NCBI GenBank assembly: GCA_045580045.1 | Contig: JAZNNC010000025.1 | Coordinates: forward strand, 20,367 to 84,366 | Length of the DNA: 64,000 nt | Direction of reading: 5' to 3' | Source: Tidjanibacter sp. | GTDB lineage: Bacteria > Bacteroidota > Bacteroidia > Bacteroidales > Rikenellaceae | Shown: positions 2,147 through 62,817 of the stretch, piece after piece | Numbering within the stretch: position 1 is the stretch's first letter | Layout of the letters: the number at the start of each line of letters is the position of its first letter | Made by a program: the position numbers and the translations under genes | The notes under the pieces: model-generated | What the model was told of the DNA's origin: nothing | Database searches by the model: none | Seen by the model: the letters and a program-made list of their open reading frames with translations, nothing else

Positions 2147-3553
2147 ATGGCAAGAAACAGACACCCCAGAATTGAGGGACTCGAAATAACCTCTTTGGCT
2201 GCCGAAGGCAATGCCATGGGTAAGTGGAACGACATTGTGGTATTTGTGCCGATGGCCGTACCGGGCGATGTTGTAAACGTACAGATTCGCACCAAGCGCA
2301 GGCGTTATATGGAGGGCTACGTTACGGAATACATCAAGCGTTCGCCCCTGCGTGTGGAGCCATTTTGTGGCCACTTTGGCGTGTGTGGCGGTTGCAAGTG
2401 GCAGAGCATACCATACAGCGAGCAGCTCGCCTTCAAGCAGCAGCAGGTGGCCGACCAGCTCACCCGCATCGGACACGTGGAGATTCCTCCCATCAGCCCA
2501 ATCCTCGGCTCGGCCAAGACCGACCATTACCGCAACAAACTCGAATTTACCTTTGCGCCCAAGAGGTGGAAAACCTACGAGGAGGTGGCTCGTGGCGAGG
2601 AGATTGGCGATAGGCCCGCACTCGGCTTCCACATCCCCGGAATGTTCGACAAGGTGCTCGACATCGACTACTGCCACCTGCAAGCCGAGCCATCCAACGC
2701 CATACGCAACGAGTTGCGCCGCTACTGCACCGAGCACGAGGGGTATGAGTTCTACGACATCCGTCAACACTCGGGCCTGATGCGTAACGTGGTAATCCGC
2801 ACCGCCTCCACAGGTGAGGTTATGGTCATTGTGGTCTTTGCCCAAGACAAGCCCGAACTTATCACCCCCCTGATGGAGCACCTCAAAACGACCTTCCCCG
2901 AAATCACCTCGTTGGTCTATATGATTAACGACAAACTCAACGACTCGCTCGGCGATAGGGAGCCCATCCTCTATGCGGGCCGCGACCACATCTTCGAGCA
3001 GATGGAGGGGCTTCGCTTCAAGGTTGGCCCTAAGTCGTTCTACCAGACCAACTCGGAGCAGGCCTACGAACTCTACAAGGTGGCTCGCTCGTTTGCCGAC
3101 CTGACGGGAGAAGAGGTGGTCTATGACCTCTACACCGGCACCGGCACCATTGCCAACTTTGTGGCCTCGAAGGCCAAGAGTGTGGTGGGTGTGGAGTATG
3201 TGGAGGAGGCCATTGAGGATGCCAAAGTGAACTCCGCCCTCAACGGCATTGGCAACACCACATTCTATGCCGGCGATATGAAAGACGTGATGAACGATGC
3301 CTTTGTGGAGGCCAACGGAAGGCCCGACGTGGTCATCTTGGACCCTCCGAGGGCTGGTGTACACGAGGATGTGATTGCCACCATCCTCCGAGCAGCCCCC
3401 GAAAGAATTGTCTATGTGAGTTGCAACCCTGCCACGCAGGCTCGCGACCTTGCACTGATGGACGCACAATACAAAGTGGTGGCGGTGCAGCCGGTGGATA
3501 TGTTCCCCCACACCCACCACGTTGAGAATGTAGTAAAACTAGTAAGGCGATGA
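2147..3553 (+). CDS. rlmD: 23S rRNA (uracil-1939-C5)-methyltransferase
   Basis: TRAM N-terminus, CGHFGVCGGCKWQ Fe-S motif, SFYQTN, DLYTGTGTI, DPPRAG, YVSCNPATQARD, VDMFPHTHHVE. An alternative TTG start lies at 2129. Confidence 0.95.
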   Translation: MARNRHPRIEGLEITSLAAEGNAMGKWNDIVVFVPMAVPGDVVNVQIRTKRRRYMEGYVTEYIKRSPLRVEPFCGHFGVCGGCKWQSIPYSEQLAFKQQQVADQLTRIGHVEIPPISPILGSAKTDHYRNKLEFTFAPKRWKTYEEVARGEEIGDRPALGFHIPGMFDKVLDIDYCHLQAEPSNAIRNELRRYCTEHEGYEFYDIRQHSGLMRNVVIRTASTGEVMVIVVFAQDKPELITPLMEHLKTTFPEITSLVYMINDKLNDSLGDREPILYAGRDHIFEQMEGLRFKVGPKSFYQTNSEQAYELYKVARSFADLTGEEVVYDLYTGTGTIANFVASKAKSVVGVEYVEEAIEDAKVNSALNGIGNTTFYAGDMKDVMNDAFVEANGRPDVVILDPPRAGVHEDVIATILRAAPERIVYVSCNPATQARDLALMDAQYKVVAVQPVDMFPHTHHVENVVKLVRR

Positions 3554-20199: not shown

Positions 20200-22929
20200 A
20201 TGGCAAACGTAAAAAGAGTTTACACCTTTGGTGATAGGAAAGCCGAAGGTAATGGCAAAATGAGGGAGTTGCTTGGCGGTAAAGGTGCTAACCTTGCAGA
20301 GATGAACCTGCTGGGTATGCCCGTGCCTCCCGGATTTACCATCACAACCGATGTATGTACCGAGTACTACAAAGAGGGTGAGGCGAAGGTTATTGAGCTT
20401 ATCAAAGCAGAGGTAGAGGCCGCTATCAAGATGATTGAGGAGTCAACCGGTATGAAGTTCGGTGGCGAGGTTTCGCCCCTCTTGTTGTCGGTTCGTTCGG
20501 GTGCTCGTGCTTCGATGCCCGGTATGATGGATACCATTCTTAACCTCGGTATGAACGACAAGGCTGTTGAGGCTGTGGCTGCTCGCTCGGGCAACGACCG
20601 CTTCGCTTGGGACTCCTACCGCCGTTTCGTACAGATGTACGGCGACGTGGTTTTGGAGATGAAACCCGCTTCGAAACAGGACATCGACCCCTTCGAGGCT
20701 ATCATTGAGGAGGTTAAGGAGGAGAAAGGCGTGAAGAACGACGCCGAGTTGACCGCCGAGGACTTCAAAGAGTTGGTTGCACGCTTCAAGAAGGCTGTGA
20801 AAGAGCAGACCGGCAAGGACTTCCCCGTTGACCCCTGGGAGCAGCTTTGGGGTGCTATCTGCGCTGTGTTCCGCAGCTGGATGAACGAGAGGGCTATCCT
20901 CTACCGCAAACTCAACAACATTCCTCAGGAGTGGGGTACCGCAGTGAGCGTTATGGCAATGGTGTTCGGTAACATGGGCGACAACTCGGCTACCGGTGTT
21001 TGCTTCTCGCGCGACGCTGCCACCGGTGAGAACATCTTCAACGGTGAGTACCTCGTAAACGCACAGGGTGAGGACGTTGTTGCAGGTATCCGTACTCCCC
21101 AGCAGATTACCCTCGAAGGCTCGCGCAGGTGGGCTAAAGCTCAGAACATTGACGAGGCTACCCGTGCTGCTCAGTTCCCCTCGTTGGAGGAGGTTATGCC
21201 TGAGGTTTACAAAGAGCTCTGCGACATCAAAGAGCACTTGGAGAGCTACTTCAAAGATATGCAGGATATGGAGTTCACCATTCAGGACGGCAAACTCTGG
21301 ATGTTGCAAACCCGTAACGGTAAGCGTACCGGTGCCGCTATGGTGAAAATCGCAATGGATATGTTGGAGGAGGGCCTCATCGACGAGCAGACCGCTGTTC
21401 TCCGTCAGGAGCCCGAGAAACTCGACGAGCTGTTGCACCCCGTATTTGACAAACAGGCCATCAAGAGCGCCAAGGTTATCACCAAGGGTCTGCCCGCCAG
21501 CCCCGGTGCTGCTACCGGTCCCGTTGTGTTCTTCGCAGAGGATGCAGAGAAATATTTCCAAGAGCACGGTGTAAAGGCTGTGTTGGTACGTATCGAGACC
21601 TCGCCTGAGGACTTGAAGGGTATGTTGGACGCTGCCGGTATCCTCACCGCAAGGGGTGGTATGACCTCGCACGCTGCTGTGGTTGCTCGTGGTATGGGTA
21701 AGTGCTGCGTTTCGGGTGCAGGCGAGCTCAAAATTGACTACAAGACCCGCACTATCGAGATTGACGGCTTGGTAATCAACGAGCACGACTGGATTTCGCT
21801 CAACGGTTCTACCGGTGAGGTTTACCTCGGTCAGGTTGCAACCAAAGAGGCAGAGCTCAGTGGCGACTTCGGCAAGCTGATGGACCTCACCACCAAGTAT
21901 GCTCGTCTGAAAGTGCGCACCAACGCCGACTCGCCCCGCGATGCAAAGCAGGCTGTAAGCTTTGGCGCACAGGGTATCGGTTTGTGCCGTACGGAGCATA
22001 TGTTCTTCGAGGGCGACCGTATCTTGGCCGTTAGGGAGATGATTTTGGCTGACGATGAGGCCGGCCGTAGGGTTGCTTTGGCAAAACTGTTGCCTATGCA
22101 GCGTGAGGACTTCGAGGGTATCTTCGAGGCTATGCAGGGCCTGCCCGTAACCGTTCGTCTTTTGGATCCCCCATTGCACGAGTTCGCACCCCACACCGAG
22201 AAAGAGCAGGCCGAGTTGGCTGAGGTTATCGGCGTGAGCGTTGAGAAGATTGCTGCCAAAGTGGAGGCTTTGGCCGAGGTTAACCCCATGTTGGGCCACC
22301 GTGGTTGCCGTCTGGGTAACACCTATCCCGAGATTACCGAGATGCAGACAAGGGCTATCTTGGAGGCTGCGATGAACGTGAGGGAGAAAGGCGTGCCCGT
22401 GAAGGTTGAGATTATGGTTCCCCTTGTTGGTAACCACAAGGAGTTGCGCTACCAGAAGAATATCATTGACCGCGTTGCCGGCGAGATTTTCGCAGAGCGT
22501 AACGACAAGATTGACTATATGGTAGGTACTATGATCGAGATTCCTCGTGCTGCTGTTACTGCCGACCAGATTGCAGAGGTTGCTGAGTTCTTCTCGTTTG
22601 GTACCAACGACCTTACCCAGATGACTCTCGGTTTCTCGCGTGATGACATCGGTAAGTTCTTGCCCATCTACTTGGAGAAGAACATTTTGAAGGCTGACCC
22701 CTTCAAGATTTTGGACCGCAATGGTGTAGGCCGCCTCGTGCGCGAGGGCGTAACCAAGGGCCGTACTACCCGCAACAACCTCAAATGTGGTATTTGTGGT
22801 GAGCACGGTGGCGAGCCTTCGAGCGTTGAGTTCTGCCACTCGGCCGGTTTGGACTATGTGAGCTGTTCGCCTTTCCGTGTGCCCATCGCACGTTTGGCCG
22901 CTGCTCAGGCTGCTCTCAAACAGGATTAA
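20200..22929 (+). CDS. ppdK: Pyruvate, phosphate dikinase
   Basis: LLGGKGANLAEM, SVRSGARASMPGMMDT, GGMTSHAAVVARG (phospho-His), GLCRTEHMF, SFGTNDLTQ, GICGEHGG. Confidence 0.99.
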   Translation: MANVKRVYTFGDRKAEGNGKMRELLGGKGANLAEMNLLGMPVPPGFTITTDVCTEYYKEGEAKVIELIKAEVEAAIKMIEESTGMKFGGEVSPLLLSVRSGARASMPGMMDTILNLGMNDKAVEAVAARSGNDRFAWDSYRRFVQMYGDVVLEMKPASKQDIDPFEAIIEEVKEEKGVKNDAELTAEDFKELVARFKKAVKEQTGKDFPVDPWEQLWGAICAVFRSWMNERAILYRKLNNIPQEWGTAVSVMAMVFGNMGDNSATGVCFSRDAATGENIFNGEYLVNAQGEDVVAGIRTPQQITLEGSRRWAKAQNIDEATRAAQFPSLEEVMPEVYKELCDIKEHLESYFKDMQDMEFTIQDGKLWMLQTRNGKRTGAAMVKIAMDMLEEGLIDEQTAVLRQEPEKLDELLHPVFDKQAIKSAKVITKGLPASPGAATGPVVFFAEDAEKYFQEHGVKAVLVRIETSPEDLKGMLDAAGILTARGGMTSHAAVVARGMGKCCVSGAGELKIDYKTRTIEIDGLVINEHDWISLNGSTGEVYLGQVATKEAELSGDFGKLMDLTTKYARLKVRTNADSPRDAKQAVSFGAQGIGLCRTEHMFFEGDRILAVREMILADDEAGRRVALAKLLPMQREDFEGIFEAMQGLPVTVRLLDPPLHEFAPHTEKEQAELAEVIGVSVEKIAAKVEALAEVNPMLGHRGCRLGNTYPEITEMQTRAILEAAMNVREKGVPVKVEIMVPLVGNHKELRYQKNIIDRVAGEIFAERNDKIDYMVGTMIEIPRAAVTADQIAEVAEFFSFGTNDLTQMTLGFSRDDIGKFLPIYLEKNILKADPFKILDRNGVGRLVREGVTKGRTTRNNLKCGICGEHGGEPSSVEFCHSAGLDYVSCSPFRVPIARLAAAQAALKQD

Positions 22930-31254: not shown

Positions 31255-31872
31255 CTATCGGCCAATGAGCGACTTGATGTTCTCAATCAGCATTGTAACA
31301 GCCACCGAATTGAAGCCACCCTCGGGAATAATCACATCGGCATACTTCTTCGAAGGCTCCACAAACTCCTCGTGCATAGGCTTAACGGTGGTGGTGTATT
31401 GGGTGATGACCGACTCCATAGAGCGGCCCCTCTCCTTCACATCACGCAAAATCCTGCGAGCCAAGCGCACATCGGCATCGGTGTCCACAAATACCTTGAT
31501 GTCCATCAAATCCCTCAACTCCTTGTTCTCAAAGATGAGGATACCGTCCACGATGATAACCTTGGATGGTTTGACGGGCACCTTCTCGTCGGTGCGTGCG
31601 TGCTCCACAAAGGAATAGACGGGCCTCTCGATGGCCACACCCTCTTTGAGGGCCTTGATATGCTCCACCATCATTGACGTATCAAATGACTGCGGGTGGT
31701 CGTAGTTGAGTTTGGTTCGCTCCTCGTATGTCAAGTGGGGGAACGACTTGTAGTAGTAGTCGTGGCAGATTGTCGCCACATCATCACCTGCGAAAGCCTC
31801 CTGCAATCGCTTTACAAGCGTACTCTTACCGCTACCGGTACCGCCTGCAACTCCAATGATAGTTACATTCAT
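31255..31872 (-). CDS. udk: Uridine kinase
   Basis: IIGVAGGTGSGKST, DYYY, NYDHPQSFD, DADVRLARRILRD, EFVEPSKKYADVIIP. Confidence 0.97.
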   Translation of the reverse strand: MNVTIIGVAGGTGSGKSTLVKRLQEAFAGDDVATICHDYYYKSFPHLTYEERTKLNYDHPQSFDTSMMVEHIKALKEGVAIERPVYSFVEHARTDEKVPVKPSKVIIVDGILIFENKELRDLMDIKVFVDTDADVRLARRILRDVKERGRSMESVITQYTTTVKPMHEEFVEPSKKYADVIIPEGGFNSVAVTMLIENIKSLIGR

Positions 31873-31900
31873 ATTTTTTGAGTTATCAGTTTCTTTTTTT

Positions 31901-31935
31901 AGCCATTAGCCATTAGCCGTTGACCATTAGCTGTT
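31901..31935. repeat. Heptamer array AGCCATT AGCCATT AGCCGTT GACCATT AGCTGTT
   Basis: Five units read directly upstream of udk. Confidence 0.85.
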
Positions 31936-31949
31936 ACCGTCAATGTCCG

Positions 31950-32290
31950 AGCGTAACGCATTTCATTCCCTTCTATCCTCCGATAGCACCACGCAAAAGC
32001 GATAGAATCGAGGAAATTCAAGGCCTGCGAAGCGCATTGCCACCTCATCGCACCTCCTGCGCTTGGATAGAACGGAGGGATTTCAAGGCTTGGTTGTTGG
32101 TTGGGCCCGCAGTTTACTACGGTAAATGAGGAGCCCAAACAACAAGCGTAACGCATTTCACCCCCTTTTATTATCCTCCGACAGCACCACCGCAAAAGCG
32201 ATAGAATCGAGGAAATTCAAGGCCTGTGAAGCGCAAGAAACCGCAGTTTGCTGACGCAAATGAGGATTTCGAGCGCAAGCATAACGCAGA
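31950..32290. repeat. Tandemly repeated structured (REP/MITE- or ncRNA-like) element
   Basis: About 90-bp direct repeats at 31950-32036 and 32145-32235; hairpin core CCGCAGTTTRC-N4-GYAAATGAGGA at 32107-32132 and 32241-32266 with compensatory changes. Confidence 0.85.
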
Positions 32291-32315
32291 ATTTACCGAT
32301 TATCTCGCTTTTGCA

Positions 32316-34271
32316 CTATGCGTCGATTTTCGCATACTTGGCATGCTTCTCAATAAACTCACGGCGAGGACCTACCTCATCACCCATAAGCATCGAGAAA
32401 ATCCTGTCGGCCTCGGCTGCGTTCTCAATCGACACCTGCTTCAAAATGCGGGTTGCGGGATCCATAGTGGTCTCCCACAGCTGGTGCTCGTTCATCTCAC
32501 CAAGACCTTTGTACCTCTGTACGGTAACACCCTTGGTGCCCAACTCGGCGGTAATCTTTGCCCTCTCCTCGTCGGTCCAGCAGTAGTGTTTGGCGTTGCC
32601 CTTCTTAACAAGGTAGAGAGGAGGCATCGCAATATAGACGTGGCCCTGCTCGATGAGCTCCTTCATCTTGCGGAAGAAGAAGGTCAGCATCAGAGTTGCA
32701 ATGTGGCTACCATCCACATCCGCATCGGTCATGATGATAATCTTGTCGTAGCGGAGTTTTTCGAGGTTGAGTGCTTTGGGGTCCTCCTCGGTACCGATGG
32801 TTACACCCAACGCAGTGAACATATTCTTAATCTCCTGATTCTCCCACATACGGTGCTCCTGCACTTTCTCGATGTTGAGAATCTTACCCCTCAAAGGCAT
32901 AATGGCCTGATACTCGCGGTTGCGGCCCTGCTTTGCAGTACCGCCTGCCGAATCACCCTCGACGAAGAAAATCTCCGCTTTGCTCCTATCCCTTGTGGCA
33001 CAGTCGGCCAACTTACCGGGAAGGCCCGAACCGGACAACACAGTCTTACGCTGCACAAGCTCCCTTGCGTGGCGGGCAGCGTGGCGGGCGGTTGCGGCCA
33101 ACACAACTTTATCTACAATGGCCTTTGCATCCTTCGGGTGCTCTTCGAGGTAGTTGGTCAGGGCCTGCGAGATGGCTTGGTCCACAGCCGCTGCAACCTC
33201 GTCATTACCGAGTTTGGTCTTGGTCTGTCCCTCAAACTGAGGCTCGGCAACCTTAACCGACACAACAGCAGTGAGGCCCTCGCGGAAGTCGTCGCCCGAG
33301 ATGTCGAACTTAATCTTCGAGAGCATACCGTTCTCCTCGGCATATTTTTTCATCGTGCGGGTGAGAGCCCTGCGGAAACCGGTCAGGTGGGTACCACCCT
33401 CGATGGTGTTGATATTGTTAACGTAGGAGTGCACATTCTCCGAGAAGCTATCGTTGTACTGCATAGCCACCTCAACGGGAGTGCCGTTTTTCTCGGTGTC
33501 GATGTAGATGATGTCGTCGATAATCTTCTGGCCACGGCTCTCGTCCAAGTACTCCACAAAGCCTTTCAGACCATTGTCCGAGTAGAAGTGCTCGTGGAGG
33601 TAGTTACCCTCCTCGTCTTTCTCCCTACGGTCGGTAATATCGAGGTTGATGCCCTTGTTGAGGAATGCCAACTCGCGCAACCTTGTGGCCAAAATCTCAT
33701 AGCGATAGGTTGTAGCGGTGAAGATATCGCCATCGGGCTTAAATTTGATGGTTGTACCCGTACGATCCGTTTCGCCGATAATCTTCAACTCCGAGGTCGT
33801 TACACCACGGCTGAAAGTCATCTGGTGAATCTTACCGTCCCTGCACACCGTAGCAACAAGCTCGGTCGAAAGCGCGTTCACACACGACACACCCACACCG
33901 TGCAAACCACCCGACACCTTGTAGGAGTCTTTGCTGAACTTACCGCCGGCGTGAAGAATGGTCAACACCACCTCCAAAGCCGACTTACCCTCCTGCTCGT
34001 GCATACCCACAGGGATACCACGGCCGTTATCCTCAACGGTGATGGAGTTGTCCTCGTTGATGGTTACTTTGATGTCGGTACAATAGCCTGCCAGAGCCTC
34101 GTCGATGGAGTTGTCCACCACCTCATAAACCAAGTGGTGCAAACCCCTCTCGCCAATATCTCCGATATACATTGCAGGACGTTTGCGAACTGCTTCGAGG
34201 CCCTCCAACACCTGAATACTTGATGCGGAATACTCCTCCTGTGCTACTTTTTTCTCTTCGATGTTCTCCAT
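32316..34271 (-). CDS. gyrB: DNA gyrase subunit B
   Basis: LEGLEAVRKRPAMYIG, EVVDNSIDE, GGLHGVG, FEGQTK, EGDSAGG, PLRGK, MTDADVDG, RYKGLGEM. Confidence 0.97.
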   Translation of the reverse strand: MENIEEKKVAQEEYSASSIQVLEGLEAVRKRPAMYIGDIGERGLHHLVYEVVDNSIDEALAGYCTDIKVTINEDNSITVEDNGRGIPVGMHEQEGKSALEVVLTILHAGGKFSKDSYKVSGGLHGVGVSCVNALSTELVATVCRDGKIHQMTFSRGVTTSELKIIGETDRTGTTIKFKPDGDIFTATTYRYEILATRLRELAFLNKGINLDITDRREKDEEGNYLHEHFYSDNGLKGFVEYLDESRGQKIIDDIIYIDTEKNGTPVEVAMQYNDSFSENVHSYVNNINTIEGGTHLTGFRRALTRTMKKYAEENGMLSKIKFDISGDDFREGLTAVVSVKVAEPQFEGQTKTKLGNDEVAAAVDQAISQALTNYLEEHPKDAKAIVDKVVLAATARHAARHARELVQRKTVLSGSGLPGKLADCATRDRSKAEIFFVEGDSAGGTAKQGRNREYQAIMPLRGKILNIEKVQEHRMWENQEIKNMFTALGVTIGTEEDPKALNLEKLRYDKIIIMTDADVDGSHIATLMLTFFFRKMKELIEQGHVYIAMPPLYLVKKGNAKHYCWTDEERAKITAELGTKGVTVQRYKGLGEMNEHQLWETTMDPATRILKQVSIENAAEADRIFSMLMGDEVGPRREFIEKHAKYAKIDA

Positions 34272-35286: not shown

Positions 35287-35690
35287 GGGGTTGACCGGTT
35301 TTGACAGCAGGATATGCAGGTTGGTAAGCACGTCGAGCTTTGTGTGGGGGCTCGTTAATCTCAACGCTCAAACAATTAAATGGCAATAATAGCTACGCAC
35401 TCGCTGCTTAATTAACCGAGTTAATTGGCTTAATTTCTGCGCCCAAGGCTGGTGCGGAAACGAGTACTCCGCCACACCCTCCCGCTTCTTGTGGGCGTGG
35501 CTAACGGAGTATCATCAATGAGAAGATAGCCCGAGGGGTGTTCCGACCACAGGGCGAAACCAAACCGGAACTGGGGCTGTGATATGGTTGCCACCCACCG
35601 CATTGCAGCAGGAGGATTAAGCAGTGGATAAGCGTGTAGAAAACTTTCAGGCAGACTGTTTGGACGGGGGTTCGACTCCCCCCAGCTCCA
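35287..35690 (+). ncRNA. ssrA: tmRNA (transfer-messenger RNA), tag (A)GNNSYALAA*
   Basis: 5' GGGGTTG pairs with 3' CAGCTCC-A including a G3-U pair; T-arm GGGGGTTCGACTCCCCC; tag ORF ggc aat aat agc tac gca ctc gct gct taa at 35382-35411. Confidence 0.97.
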
Positions 35691-35693
35691 CAC

Positions 35694-54775: not shown

Positions 54776-54847
54776 GGTTCCATAGTTCAACGGATAGAAC
54801 GACAGTTTCCTAAACTGTAAATCTGGGTTCGATTCCCGGTGGGACTA
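54776..54847 (+). tRNA. tRNA-Arg(CCU)
   Basis: Acceptor GGTTCCA/TGGGACT, anticodon arm ACAGT-TTCCTAA-ACTGT, T-loop TTCGATT. Confidence 0.96.
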
Positions 54848-62746: not shown

Positions 62747-62817
62747 TGAGCCATGGTGTAATGGTAACACTGCAGATTTTGGTTCTGTCATTCTGAGTTC
62801 GAGTCTCGGTGGCTCAA
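62747..62817 (+). tRNA. tRNA-Gln(UUG)
   Basis: Acceptor TGAGCCA/TGGCTCA, anticodon arm GCAGA-TTTTGGT-TCTGT, T-loop TTCGAGT; -7 box TATCTTTG at 62717-62724. Confidence 0.96.

Follow-up and report, generated by a model that had tools for sequence, protein, structure and literature searches.

What kind of element fills the spacer between gyrB and udk in a Tidjanibacter genome, where structured units recur with their stems exchanged and their loops retained, and does it serve either gene? The question arises from a 64,000-nt window, the whole stretch of DNA analysed (positions 20,367 to 84,366 of contig JAZNNC010000025.1, GenBank assembly GCA_045580045.1), in which gyrB and udk both lie on the - strand and are separated by 443 nt. 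A first-pass annotation of the repeats had suggested either an unannotated non-coding RNA or riboregulator acting at the gyrB 3'/udk 5' region, or a non-autonomous mobile element, which might be a miniature transposable element with inverted repeats (MITE) or a repetitive extragenic palindrome (REP) moved by an HUH (histidine-hydrophobic-histidine) transposase. The reading favoured here, with a probability of about 0.7, is that the repeats comprise two complete and two truncated copies of a MITE-like mobile element, most likely passive at this site, and not a dedicated regulator of gyrB or udk. The cluster appears to belong to an undescribed MITE-like family with a separable, conserved and structured core, locally rearranged in this genome.

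Distribution, mobility and the orthologous junction

The family unit is a non-coding, rod-like imperfect palindrome of 109-126 nt, closed by a long outer stem (P1, 15-26 bp) that is unrelated in sequence between lineages; its arms are near-perfect inverted repeats in active-looking families and degenerate in one of the two complete window copies (unit B). Within P1 the order is CAAGGCUUGCGA - P2 - SCGSAG - P3 hairpin - UGAGSA - P2' - RAGCGUAACGCAG, where P2 is variable in sequence and P3 is a hairpin of 5-6 bp. A pattern of the core and 3' junction matches at least 120 loci in metagenome contigs, which come from the guts of termites and ruminants, from peat/fen and from sediments, and a covariance model, R1, recovers approximately 170 copies in loci L001-L130 at up to 7 per 13 kb, including 4-7 copies within 12-13 kb in L048, L049 and L128. 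Model scans covered the retrieved loci and the 64-kb window, and taxonomy is based on two checks; DnaG of one high-copy contig is closest to proteins of Bacteroidales metagenome-assembled genomes (MAGs), which fits the membership of Tidjanibacter in the Rikenellaceae. Within Tidjanibacter, the lineage-specific box occurs at one locus per species, and the model likewise finds a single locus in the window.

All copies are intergenic and border unrelated housekeeping genes, with 144 neighbouring genes matching 174 Pfam families, none of them more than three times. Gene 3' ends face the element about twice as often as 5' ends (83 vs 42), and the preference sharpens at close range, where 23/83 3' ends and 2/42 5' ends lie within 10 nt; divergent spacers are avoided (8 vs 23 convergent). 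No orientation bias accompanies this placement, either in tandem contexts (21 same, 23 opposite) or at close 3' ends (12 vs 18). Adjacent or tandem copies occur at other loci too (L034 2332-2581; L100 3623-3968; L113 821-1056; L072 about 40-196), so that clustering is a general habit of the family.

Evidence for transposition is provided by the sequences at and beyond the unit ends. Perfect 4-bp direct repeats flank 18 of 71 unique insertions, whereas permuted controls gave 1.7 +/- 1.2, the highest count in 1000 being 7; these duplications are A/T-rich (TAAA, TAAT, TATT, TTTA and similar) and are seen in families with near-identical copies. In one such group, the GTGTCTG family, TAAT, TAAA or TATT duplications were read at 8/9 copies with a left extension from the alignment that fixes the true ends. 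TAAW-type targets would account for how often the element begins directly after a stop codon. A different MITE of 179 bp, present in the termite-gut IMG/VR contig L194, carries terminal inverted repeats (TIRs) GGCAACCTCCGAAAAC...GTTTTCGGAGGTTGCC and a TATT duplication around an unrelated interior, and its TIRs are exactly those of the largest family of the element described here. Given the same TIRs on an unrelated interior, P1 can be regarded as a transposition module from which the core is separable, and the identity of TIRs and 4-bp duplication length in two unrelated MITEs implies a shared transposase. In L061, L084 and L110, TIRs that stand alone run into host genes or have no partner.

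The orthologous junction in relatives adds a further line of evidence. A scan for the 5' box in one genome per species matched seven Tidjanibacter MAG species and gave three matches in other phyla; all seven Tidjanibacter matches (7/7) fall at the gyrB-udk junction, in species whose gyrB and udk proteins are 93-99% and 92-99% identical, respectively, to those of the window, and whose spacers of 169-425 nt hold one to approximately four units or half-units of three stem types. L004, L006 and L010 were rejected as true members, being chance matches with no model match (by our own estimate, 20 fixed bases should match about once by chance in 596 Gb). Alistipes and another Rikenellaceae lineage keep the ftsE-gyrB-udk synteny, with a spacer of 85-86 nt that holds a plain hairpin, and so does a Tidjanibacter-like lineage (L137-L142, including GCA_052837445.1), where a spacer of 33-35 nt represents the empty site; udk of this last lineage is 94% identical to that of the window, and its downstream genes and synteny are as in the window. 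The covariance model had no match at the Alistipes, other Rikenellaceae or empty-site junctions. With the site filled by 1-4 units in eight Tidjanibacter genomes (the window, L001-L003, L005 and L007-L009) and empty in a syntenic lineage of Tidjanibacter type, the element is an insertion polymorphic within the genus, the outcome of the presence/absence check that the first-pass annotation proposed. The plain hairpin after gyrB in Alistipes (L131 about 3425-3465; GGAGGTTATCGGC...GCCGGCAACCTCC) has 10 nt in common with the GGCAACCTCC terminal repeat of the termite-gut family, probably by coincidence.

Taken on these grounds, the mobile-element half of the earlier proposal divides. Its MITE form is supported by TIRs, 4-bp target duplications, multicopy contigs, presence/absence polymorphism and TIRs common to an unrelated MITE, whereas its REP or HUH-substrate form is unsupported, because target duplications exist, a GTAG or CGTC tag is missing and the element measures approximately 115 nt.

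Fold, covariation and strand asymmetry

The core is the most constant part of the unit, although not uniformly so. In the 5' junction CAAGGCUUGCGA, which lies outside the search pattern, a 61-sequence alignment shows no variation in AAGGC or in the G three positions further on, and the rest is mostly at least 90% conserved. The segments CCGCAG and TGAGGA had been described as invariant; this holds nearly for most of their length, but a 2-bp helix inside them covaries family-wide (GC...GC vs CC...GG), corresponding to the S-S positions of the internal loop SCGS-AG / UGA-GS-A, which pair and covary. Judged by eye from the alignment and the predicted folds, the junction is compatible with a short UGC/GCG helix beside a G.A / A.G mismatch pair, and a second such mismatch pair is visible within P2 in many members.

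In the model alignment, 94.6% of cells are paired, compared with 79.5% after shuffling and approximately 40% when the partner is slid, and 375 double-sided changes are counted against 102 +/- 8, with compensatory change at 18/25 pairs, copies within a family not being independent of each other. Individual cases illustrate the exchange, in P2 as GAGGAGAAAA/TTTTCTCCTC vs GAAGAGAAAA/TTTTCTCTTC among orthologous units, GCGC.../...GCGC vs GCGT.../...ACGC, and TTGTTGTTTGGGC/GCCCAACCAACAA vs TTTTAGTTTGGCA/TGCCAAACTAAAA; and in P1 as TGCGCT.../...AGCGCA vs CGCAAA.../...TTTGCG between orthologous Tidjanibacter copies.

The fold also distinguishes the two strands. The non-redundant set has 156 G.U pairs against 20 A.C pairs, or 59 against 19 with two near-fixed G.U pairs left out; the + strand of the element folds more stably than its complement in 52/52 non-redundant members, by a mean of 8.5 kcal/mol, the difference being small (~2-3 kcal/mol) for the two window units. 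The G.U excess and the consistent difference in stability indicate that the fold is selected on the strand reading CAAGGC...GCGUAACGCAG, and since the core folds best on one strand, it most likely acts as a single-stranded nucleic acid, probably as RNA transcribed from that strand of the element. The first-pass suggestion of selection on single-stranded structure therefore gains from both the strong covariation and the strand asymmetry. The better-folding strand in the window is the + strand, antisense to gyrB and udk.

Termite-gut metatranscriptome assemblies, which consist of unstranded contigs, contain the element in abundance and beside many different flanks. Depth peaks over the core reflect copy number, as such peaks are also present in DNA runs; in the community data, depth over the P1 arms equals that of single-copy flanks.

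Variation on the basic plan takes several forms. A second subfamily shares contigs with the first (L102 9793-9903, L048 6977-7087, L049 9221-9331, L128 9478-9588 and 6012-6118) and keeps CAAGGC, CGCRG, YGAGGA and a 3' junction GCAACGCRG with similar outer arms, while P3 differs (AAUAC/GUAUU). In some members an additional hairpin stands at a fixed site directly after GCUUGCGA, and in others 20-60 nt are inserted in the apical loop, the remainder of the element staying intact; members with one or the other are L028, L052, L101, L083, L094, L126, L078 (744-909), L118 (654-783) and L069 (7174-7310). The GTGTCTG family (L021, L048, L049, L088, L102 and L128) has two versions of the outer arm on its left side, of which one, at the true end, is a perfect complement of the right arm; the other lies approximately 42 nt inward, has diverged and pairs with that arm through G.U pairs and one G.A mismatch, so that the outer helix could form in two alternative ways.

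Comparison with described families returned nothing similar. At gathering scores, Rfam (release 15) found only transfer-messenger RNA (tmRNA) and tRNAs in the window and only tRNAs in seven loci with full copies, and a permissive scan of 31800-32400 gave chance-level matches only, so that the Rfam comparison proposed in the first-pass annotation matches the element to no described family. Blastn against plasmids and phages gave no match, the core was also absent from IMG/VR, and the literature search found no paper with the core sequences and no description of such a family.

The gyrB-udk cluster in the window

The pieces listed in the first-pass annotation were all found at their coordinates, with box and core matches far above chance: the 5' box GATAGAANNGAGGNANTTCAAGGC has three occurrences (32001, 32066 and 32200) with 0 expected, the core CCGCAGTTTRC-N4-GYAAATGAGGA has two (32107 and 32241) with 0.01 expected, and AGCGTAACGCA-type ends lie at 31949, 32144 and 32277. 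Covariation of the inner hairpin (TTTAC/GTAAA vs TTTGC/GCAAA) was also reproduced, as was the pairing of outer stems of unrelated sequence, TTGTTGGTTGGGC/GCCCAAACAACAA with one G.A mismatch and GCGCAAGAAA/TTTCGAGCGC with a 2x2 AA/GA internal loop. Apart from units B and C, nothing in the 64 kb scores above 13 bits with a covariance model derived from relatives.

The extent and arrangement of the units required revision (Table 1). As first described the unit was too short: unit C is closed by a further outer stem, and because that stem belongs to the unit, the unit measures approximately 112-123 nt; the segment 'GATAGAA..GAGG', taken to be a loop, is the 5' arm of the outer stem. Nor is the cluster a tandem head-to-tail array, as Tandem Repeats Finder reports only a heptamer repeat; it is rearranged, and contains a duplication of approximately 197 nt in which 31948-32036 resembles 32143-32235. 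On the + strand the order is heptamer repeat, copy 0, spacer, copy A, unit B, spacer and unit C. Positions 31993-32036 of copy A are 98% identical to 32191-32235, and its arrangement, with the 5' part only, recurs in L001 and L003; unit B shows compensatory changes in its orthologous copies (L001, L003 and L005). Unit C ends 1 nt away from the gyrB stop codon, and its RNAfold energies are -46.1 kcal/mol (+ strand) and -44.2 kcal/mol (- strand). The spacer as a whole folds more stably than its shuffles on both strands (z = -3.4 and -3.1).

Table 1. Coordinates of the repeat cluster and its flanking genes in the window, and of the MITE in contig L194 that shares TIRs with the family
Feature	Position	Strand	Details
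udk (uridine kinase)	31255..31872	-	NCBIfam NF004018, 300.6 bits; downstream of the repeat cluster on the - strand
Copy 0, truncated	31948..31978	+	3' junction remnant CGAGCGTAACGCA (31948-31960) and B-type P1 3' arm (31961-31978)
Spacer TCCGATAGCACCAC	31979..31992 (14 nt)	+	second copy at 32177-32191; part of the ~197-nt duplication
Copy A, truncated	31993..32064	+	P1 5' arm, 5' junction and P2 start of a C-type unit, then unrelated hairpin
Unrelated hairpin AAGCGCA...TGCGCTT	32030-32064	+	replaces P2/P3 in copy A
Unit B, complete	32065..32176	+	outer stem degenerate; covariance-model match 79.3 bits, E 7.2e-20
Unit B P1	32065-32083 with 32156-32176	+	
Unit B 5' junction	32084-32093	+	
Unit B P2	32094-32108 with 32130-32145	+	
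Unit B P3	32113-32126	+	
Unit B 3' junction	32146-32155	+	GCGTAACGCA
Unit C, complete	32192..32314	+	covariance-model match 32199-32309, 84.2 bits, E 2.9e-21; 18-nt inverted repeat
Unit C P1 (outer stem)	32192-32217 with 32289-32314	+	
Unit C 5' junction	32218-32229	+	CAAGGCCTGTGA
Unit C P2	32230-32242 with 32264-32276	+	internal loop GCAG / TGA
Unit C P3 and loop	32247-32260	+	TTTGC-TGAC-GCAAA
Unit C 3' junction	32277-32291	+	AAGCATAACGCAGAA
gyrB	32316..34271	-	NCBIfam TIGR01059, 950.9 bits; stop codon abuts unit C
L194 MITE	2628-2806 and from 5877 (in L194)		two copies, 3.2 kb apart; TIRs GGCAACCTCCGAAAAC

The heptamer repeat is a separate feature, a 7-nt-period array at 31899-31931 just upstream of the udk start, found by Tandem Repeats Finder. 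It occupies the same position in L001, L002, L005, L007, L008 and L009, is missing from the empty-site lineage, and has a species-dependent unit: the window has TTAGCCA, L007 and L008 have a unit resembling ATTTTCA, L001, L005 and L009 one resembling GTTAGAC, and L002 one resembling CCCTAAN. Further along the window lie a tmRNA gene (35287-35693, +, 145 bits), approximately 1 kb beyond gyrB and an ftsE-like gene, and two tRNA genes (54776-54847, + and 62747-62817, +).

Open reading frames (ORFs) that cross the element are artefacts. A 98-aa ORF (31899-32195, -) crosses the window cluster; as a small protein or leader peptide it was rejected, not being conserved across species of differing copy number, and coding is excluded for the element because P2 varies and covaries and there is no conserved peptide. 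Elsewhere, predicted genes start at the ATG within the conserved AAAUGAG (L084 127-852, - and L061 264-1637, -), giving N-termini of the form 'MSIL(S/D)R(K/E)RNAESGV...', and a 349-aa 'udk' database protein (P0001) may be an extension across such a cluster. An exact look-up gave no entry for the udk of the window itself.

Several other identities were tried and set aside. A replication origin or DnaA-box array is not indicated, with no GC-skew switch at the locus and boxes that by eye are unlike TTATNCACA. An attC site was rejected on inspection, the ends having no R''/R' boxes (RYYYAAC / GTTRRRY), with no cassette ORFs and with target duplications present; the loop geometry, also by inspection, does not fit a K-turn, hammerhead or twister, and Rfam gave no match. 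No intrinsic (U-tract) terminators were detected.

Explanations, known systems and significance

If the element is a MITE, the P1 arms, which together with the duplications are directly visible, would be TIRs recognised by a putative transposase supplied in trans, and each insertion would duplicate 4 bp of an A/T-rich target, often placing the element directly after a stop codon. The core, with stems that vary and covary around near-invariant, purine-rich internal loops (G.A mismatch pairs in the predicted fold), would probably take part in the biology of the element as RNA read from its own strand or as single-stranded DNA. The element probably entered the short gyrB-udk spacer in one Tidjanibacter branch, where its pairing would have been kept by compensatory changes and where unequal recombination or duplication between copies would have produced the 1-4 units per species. 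Its local effect would most likely be passive: the gyrB message would carry a block of long hairpins at its 3' end, which sets gyrB apart from udk.

A number of observations weigh against this account. No autonomous element or transposase with these TIRs was found among the neighbours in approximately 0.9 Mb of loci, and no protein recurs among the 539 ORFs of those loci; target duplication is undetectable at the window copies, and because Tidjanibacter has one locus as far as tested, any mobility in this genome would at best lie in the past. Typical MITE families keep their TIRs while the interior drifts, and the pattern here is reversed. Covariation between the arms of a DNA palindrome can arise by template switching, with no selection on the fold, and both TIRs tracking one transposase can also yield covariation of the arms; the covariation counts, moreover, come from an alignment fitted to the covariance model, with a search pattern that forced conservation of three core segments. 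Summation over many copies, or carry-over of DNA, could account for the metatranscriptome signal, and the whole 446-nt spacer folds more stably on the - strand, the mRNA sense, than on the + strand (-148.7 vs -131.9 kcal/mol).

Two alternatives place the function in the core. Tentatively, and as a minority possibility, the ~70-nt core (CAAGGC... / SCGSAG - hairpin - UGAGSA / ...GCGUAACGCAG) may be a functional single-stranded module of a new class for which the MITE is only a vehicle; it would then act as an RNA that binds protein or is catalytic, or as a DNA hairpin signal specific to one strand, spreading through Bacteroidales genomes between the TIRs of different transposon families and giving the element or its host a selectable function. 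That the core is specifically a structured RNA of a new class (protein-binding or catalytic), expressed from the + strand with P1 as its closing helix and mobility secondary, is unlikely, for all that near-invariant loops among covarying stems, a fold specific to one strand in 52/52 members with G.U pairs exceeding A.C pairs, and G.A mismatch pairs seen by eye in the predicted internal loops are what such an RNA would present. The extra hairpins at fixed sites, the second subfamily with its junctions kept and a different P3, the separability of core and TIRs seen in L194 and the abundance of the element in metatranscriptome assemblies point the same way. However, because orientation bears no relation to host transcription, the element would have to supply a promoter of its own for expression, and within the element no Bacteroidetes-type TAnnTTTG motif was found by eye and a sigma-70 scan gave weak matches only, the sigma-70 consensus meaning little in this phylum; nor is there a partner protein gene nearby or an Rfam match.

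The remaining explanations fare less well. Hairpins selected by the host and devoid of their own mobility, acting as terminators, mRNA stabilisers or nucleoid-protein or gyrase sites and spread by recombination, would account for the preferred position just after stop codons in convergent or tandem spacers, for a long hairpin that serves in either orientation and for the plain hairpin at the same place after gyrB in outgroups; yet no U-tract terminators were detected, a terminator needs no conserved asymmetric core, and target duplications with TIRs common to another MITE indicate transposition, which leaves this explanation improbable. Conserved bulges and mismatches in an imperfect palindrome, a strand-specific fold and arrays like bacterial interspersed mosaic elements (BIMEs), the window included, are shared with single-stranded DNA elements of the REP or REPIN (REP doublet forming hairpin) type, moved by an HUH transposase (REP-associated tyrosine transposase, RAYT, or IS200-IS605-like) or by a tyrosine recombinase. 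Insertion by HUH enzymes or tyrosine recombinases (IS200/IS605, integrons) makes no target duplications, however, and 4-bp duplications are present here; with no GTAG/CGTC tag and no attC boxes on inspection, a unit of ~115 nt instead of 20-40 nt, no bias with regard to gene direction (an approximate stand-in for the direction of replication) and no RAYT, RAYT-like or integrase gene among the recurrent neighbour families or protein clusters, such an origin is very improbable. Scarcely credible, finally, is a cis-regulatory RNA, whether a udk leader or a gyrB 3'-UTR (untranslated region) element, sensing a metabolite or protein in tandem copies. The fold is stable and the spacer is probably co-transcribed, one 5.3-kb metatranscriptome contig spanning gyrB-udk in a related strain, but the better-folding strand is antisense to both genes, and copy number ranges from 1 to 4 among species with 93-99% identical gyrB proteins. 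The element has no constant gene-family association or orientation, lying beside genes of 174 Pfam families in both orientations, and is absent upstream of udk at the orthologous junction of close relatives (33-86-nt spacers); on the same facts the gyrB/udk riboregulator of the first-pass annotation was abandoned, and a riboswitch or cis-regulatory leader rejected.

The MITE-like reading also finds precedents among known bacterial elements. Closest in behaviour is bcr1 of the Bacillus cereus group, a MITE-like, non-coding element of ~155 bp that is dispersed in intergenic regions with short direct repeats, is transcribed, keeps its RNA-level structure through compensatory changes and has a distribution not conserved between related strains (PMC3184786). 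It differs in having 5-bp duplications and a cruciform with two stem-loops, compared with the 4-bp duplications and single rod described here, and in its unrelated sequence and phylum; the present core, in addition, is conserved across lineages with wholly different terminal repeats. A resemblance extends to the Correia (CREE/NEMIS, Neisseria) and ERIC elements, MITEs of ~100-160 bp with TIRs and target duplications that lie near genes and, once transcribed, form long hairpins, the Correia elements carrying an internal integration host factor (IHF) site and promoters (PMC3184786). These duplicate TA, conserve their TIRs within the family and have no sequence similarity to the present element, whose conserved block is, by eye, only loosely IHF-like (WATCAA-N3-TTG, not N4), and in some lineages only. 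REPs, which measure 20-40 bp and carry GTAG or CGTC tags (PMC3733652), are similar together with BIMEs and REPINs in forming extragenic palindromes arrayed downstream of genes, for which a single-stranded hairpin role has been proposed; REPs and REPINs, however, make no target duplications and depend on RAYTs, and neither the REP size and tags nor a RAYT is seen here.

A survey of Bacteroidota genomes, in which MITEs were detected by their TIR and duplication structure, lists 81,380 different MITEs (PMC11602168). The present family could well be one of its uncharacterised clusters, although the survey describes no family with a conserved structured core, and its clusters are mostly genus-specific, unlike a core that spans very different lineage-specific TIRs. 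In a phylum rich in MITEs the kind of element is known, and what is unusual for a MITE is the conserved core, the interchangeable ends and the strand-specific fold. If the core functions in hairpin formation only, the family would be one more of the bacterial MITEs.

For annotation, the cluster is neither a gene nor a riboswitch, yet it misleads gene callers. With copy number ranging from 0 to approximately 4 at gyrB-udk among close Tidjanibacter lineages, it offers a strain marker beside a standard phylogenetic gene, and the same variation constitutes a natural experiment on hairpin blocks and the expression of neighbouring genes. Gut Bacteroidales can be cultured and genetically manipulated. 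The wider puzzle posed by the family is whether, in Bacteroidales, a structured RNA or DNA module hitch-hikes on the ends of transposons.

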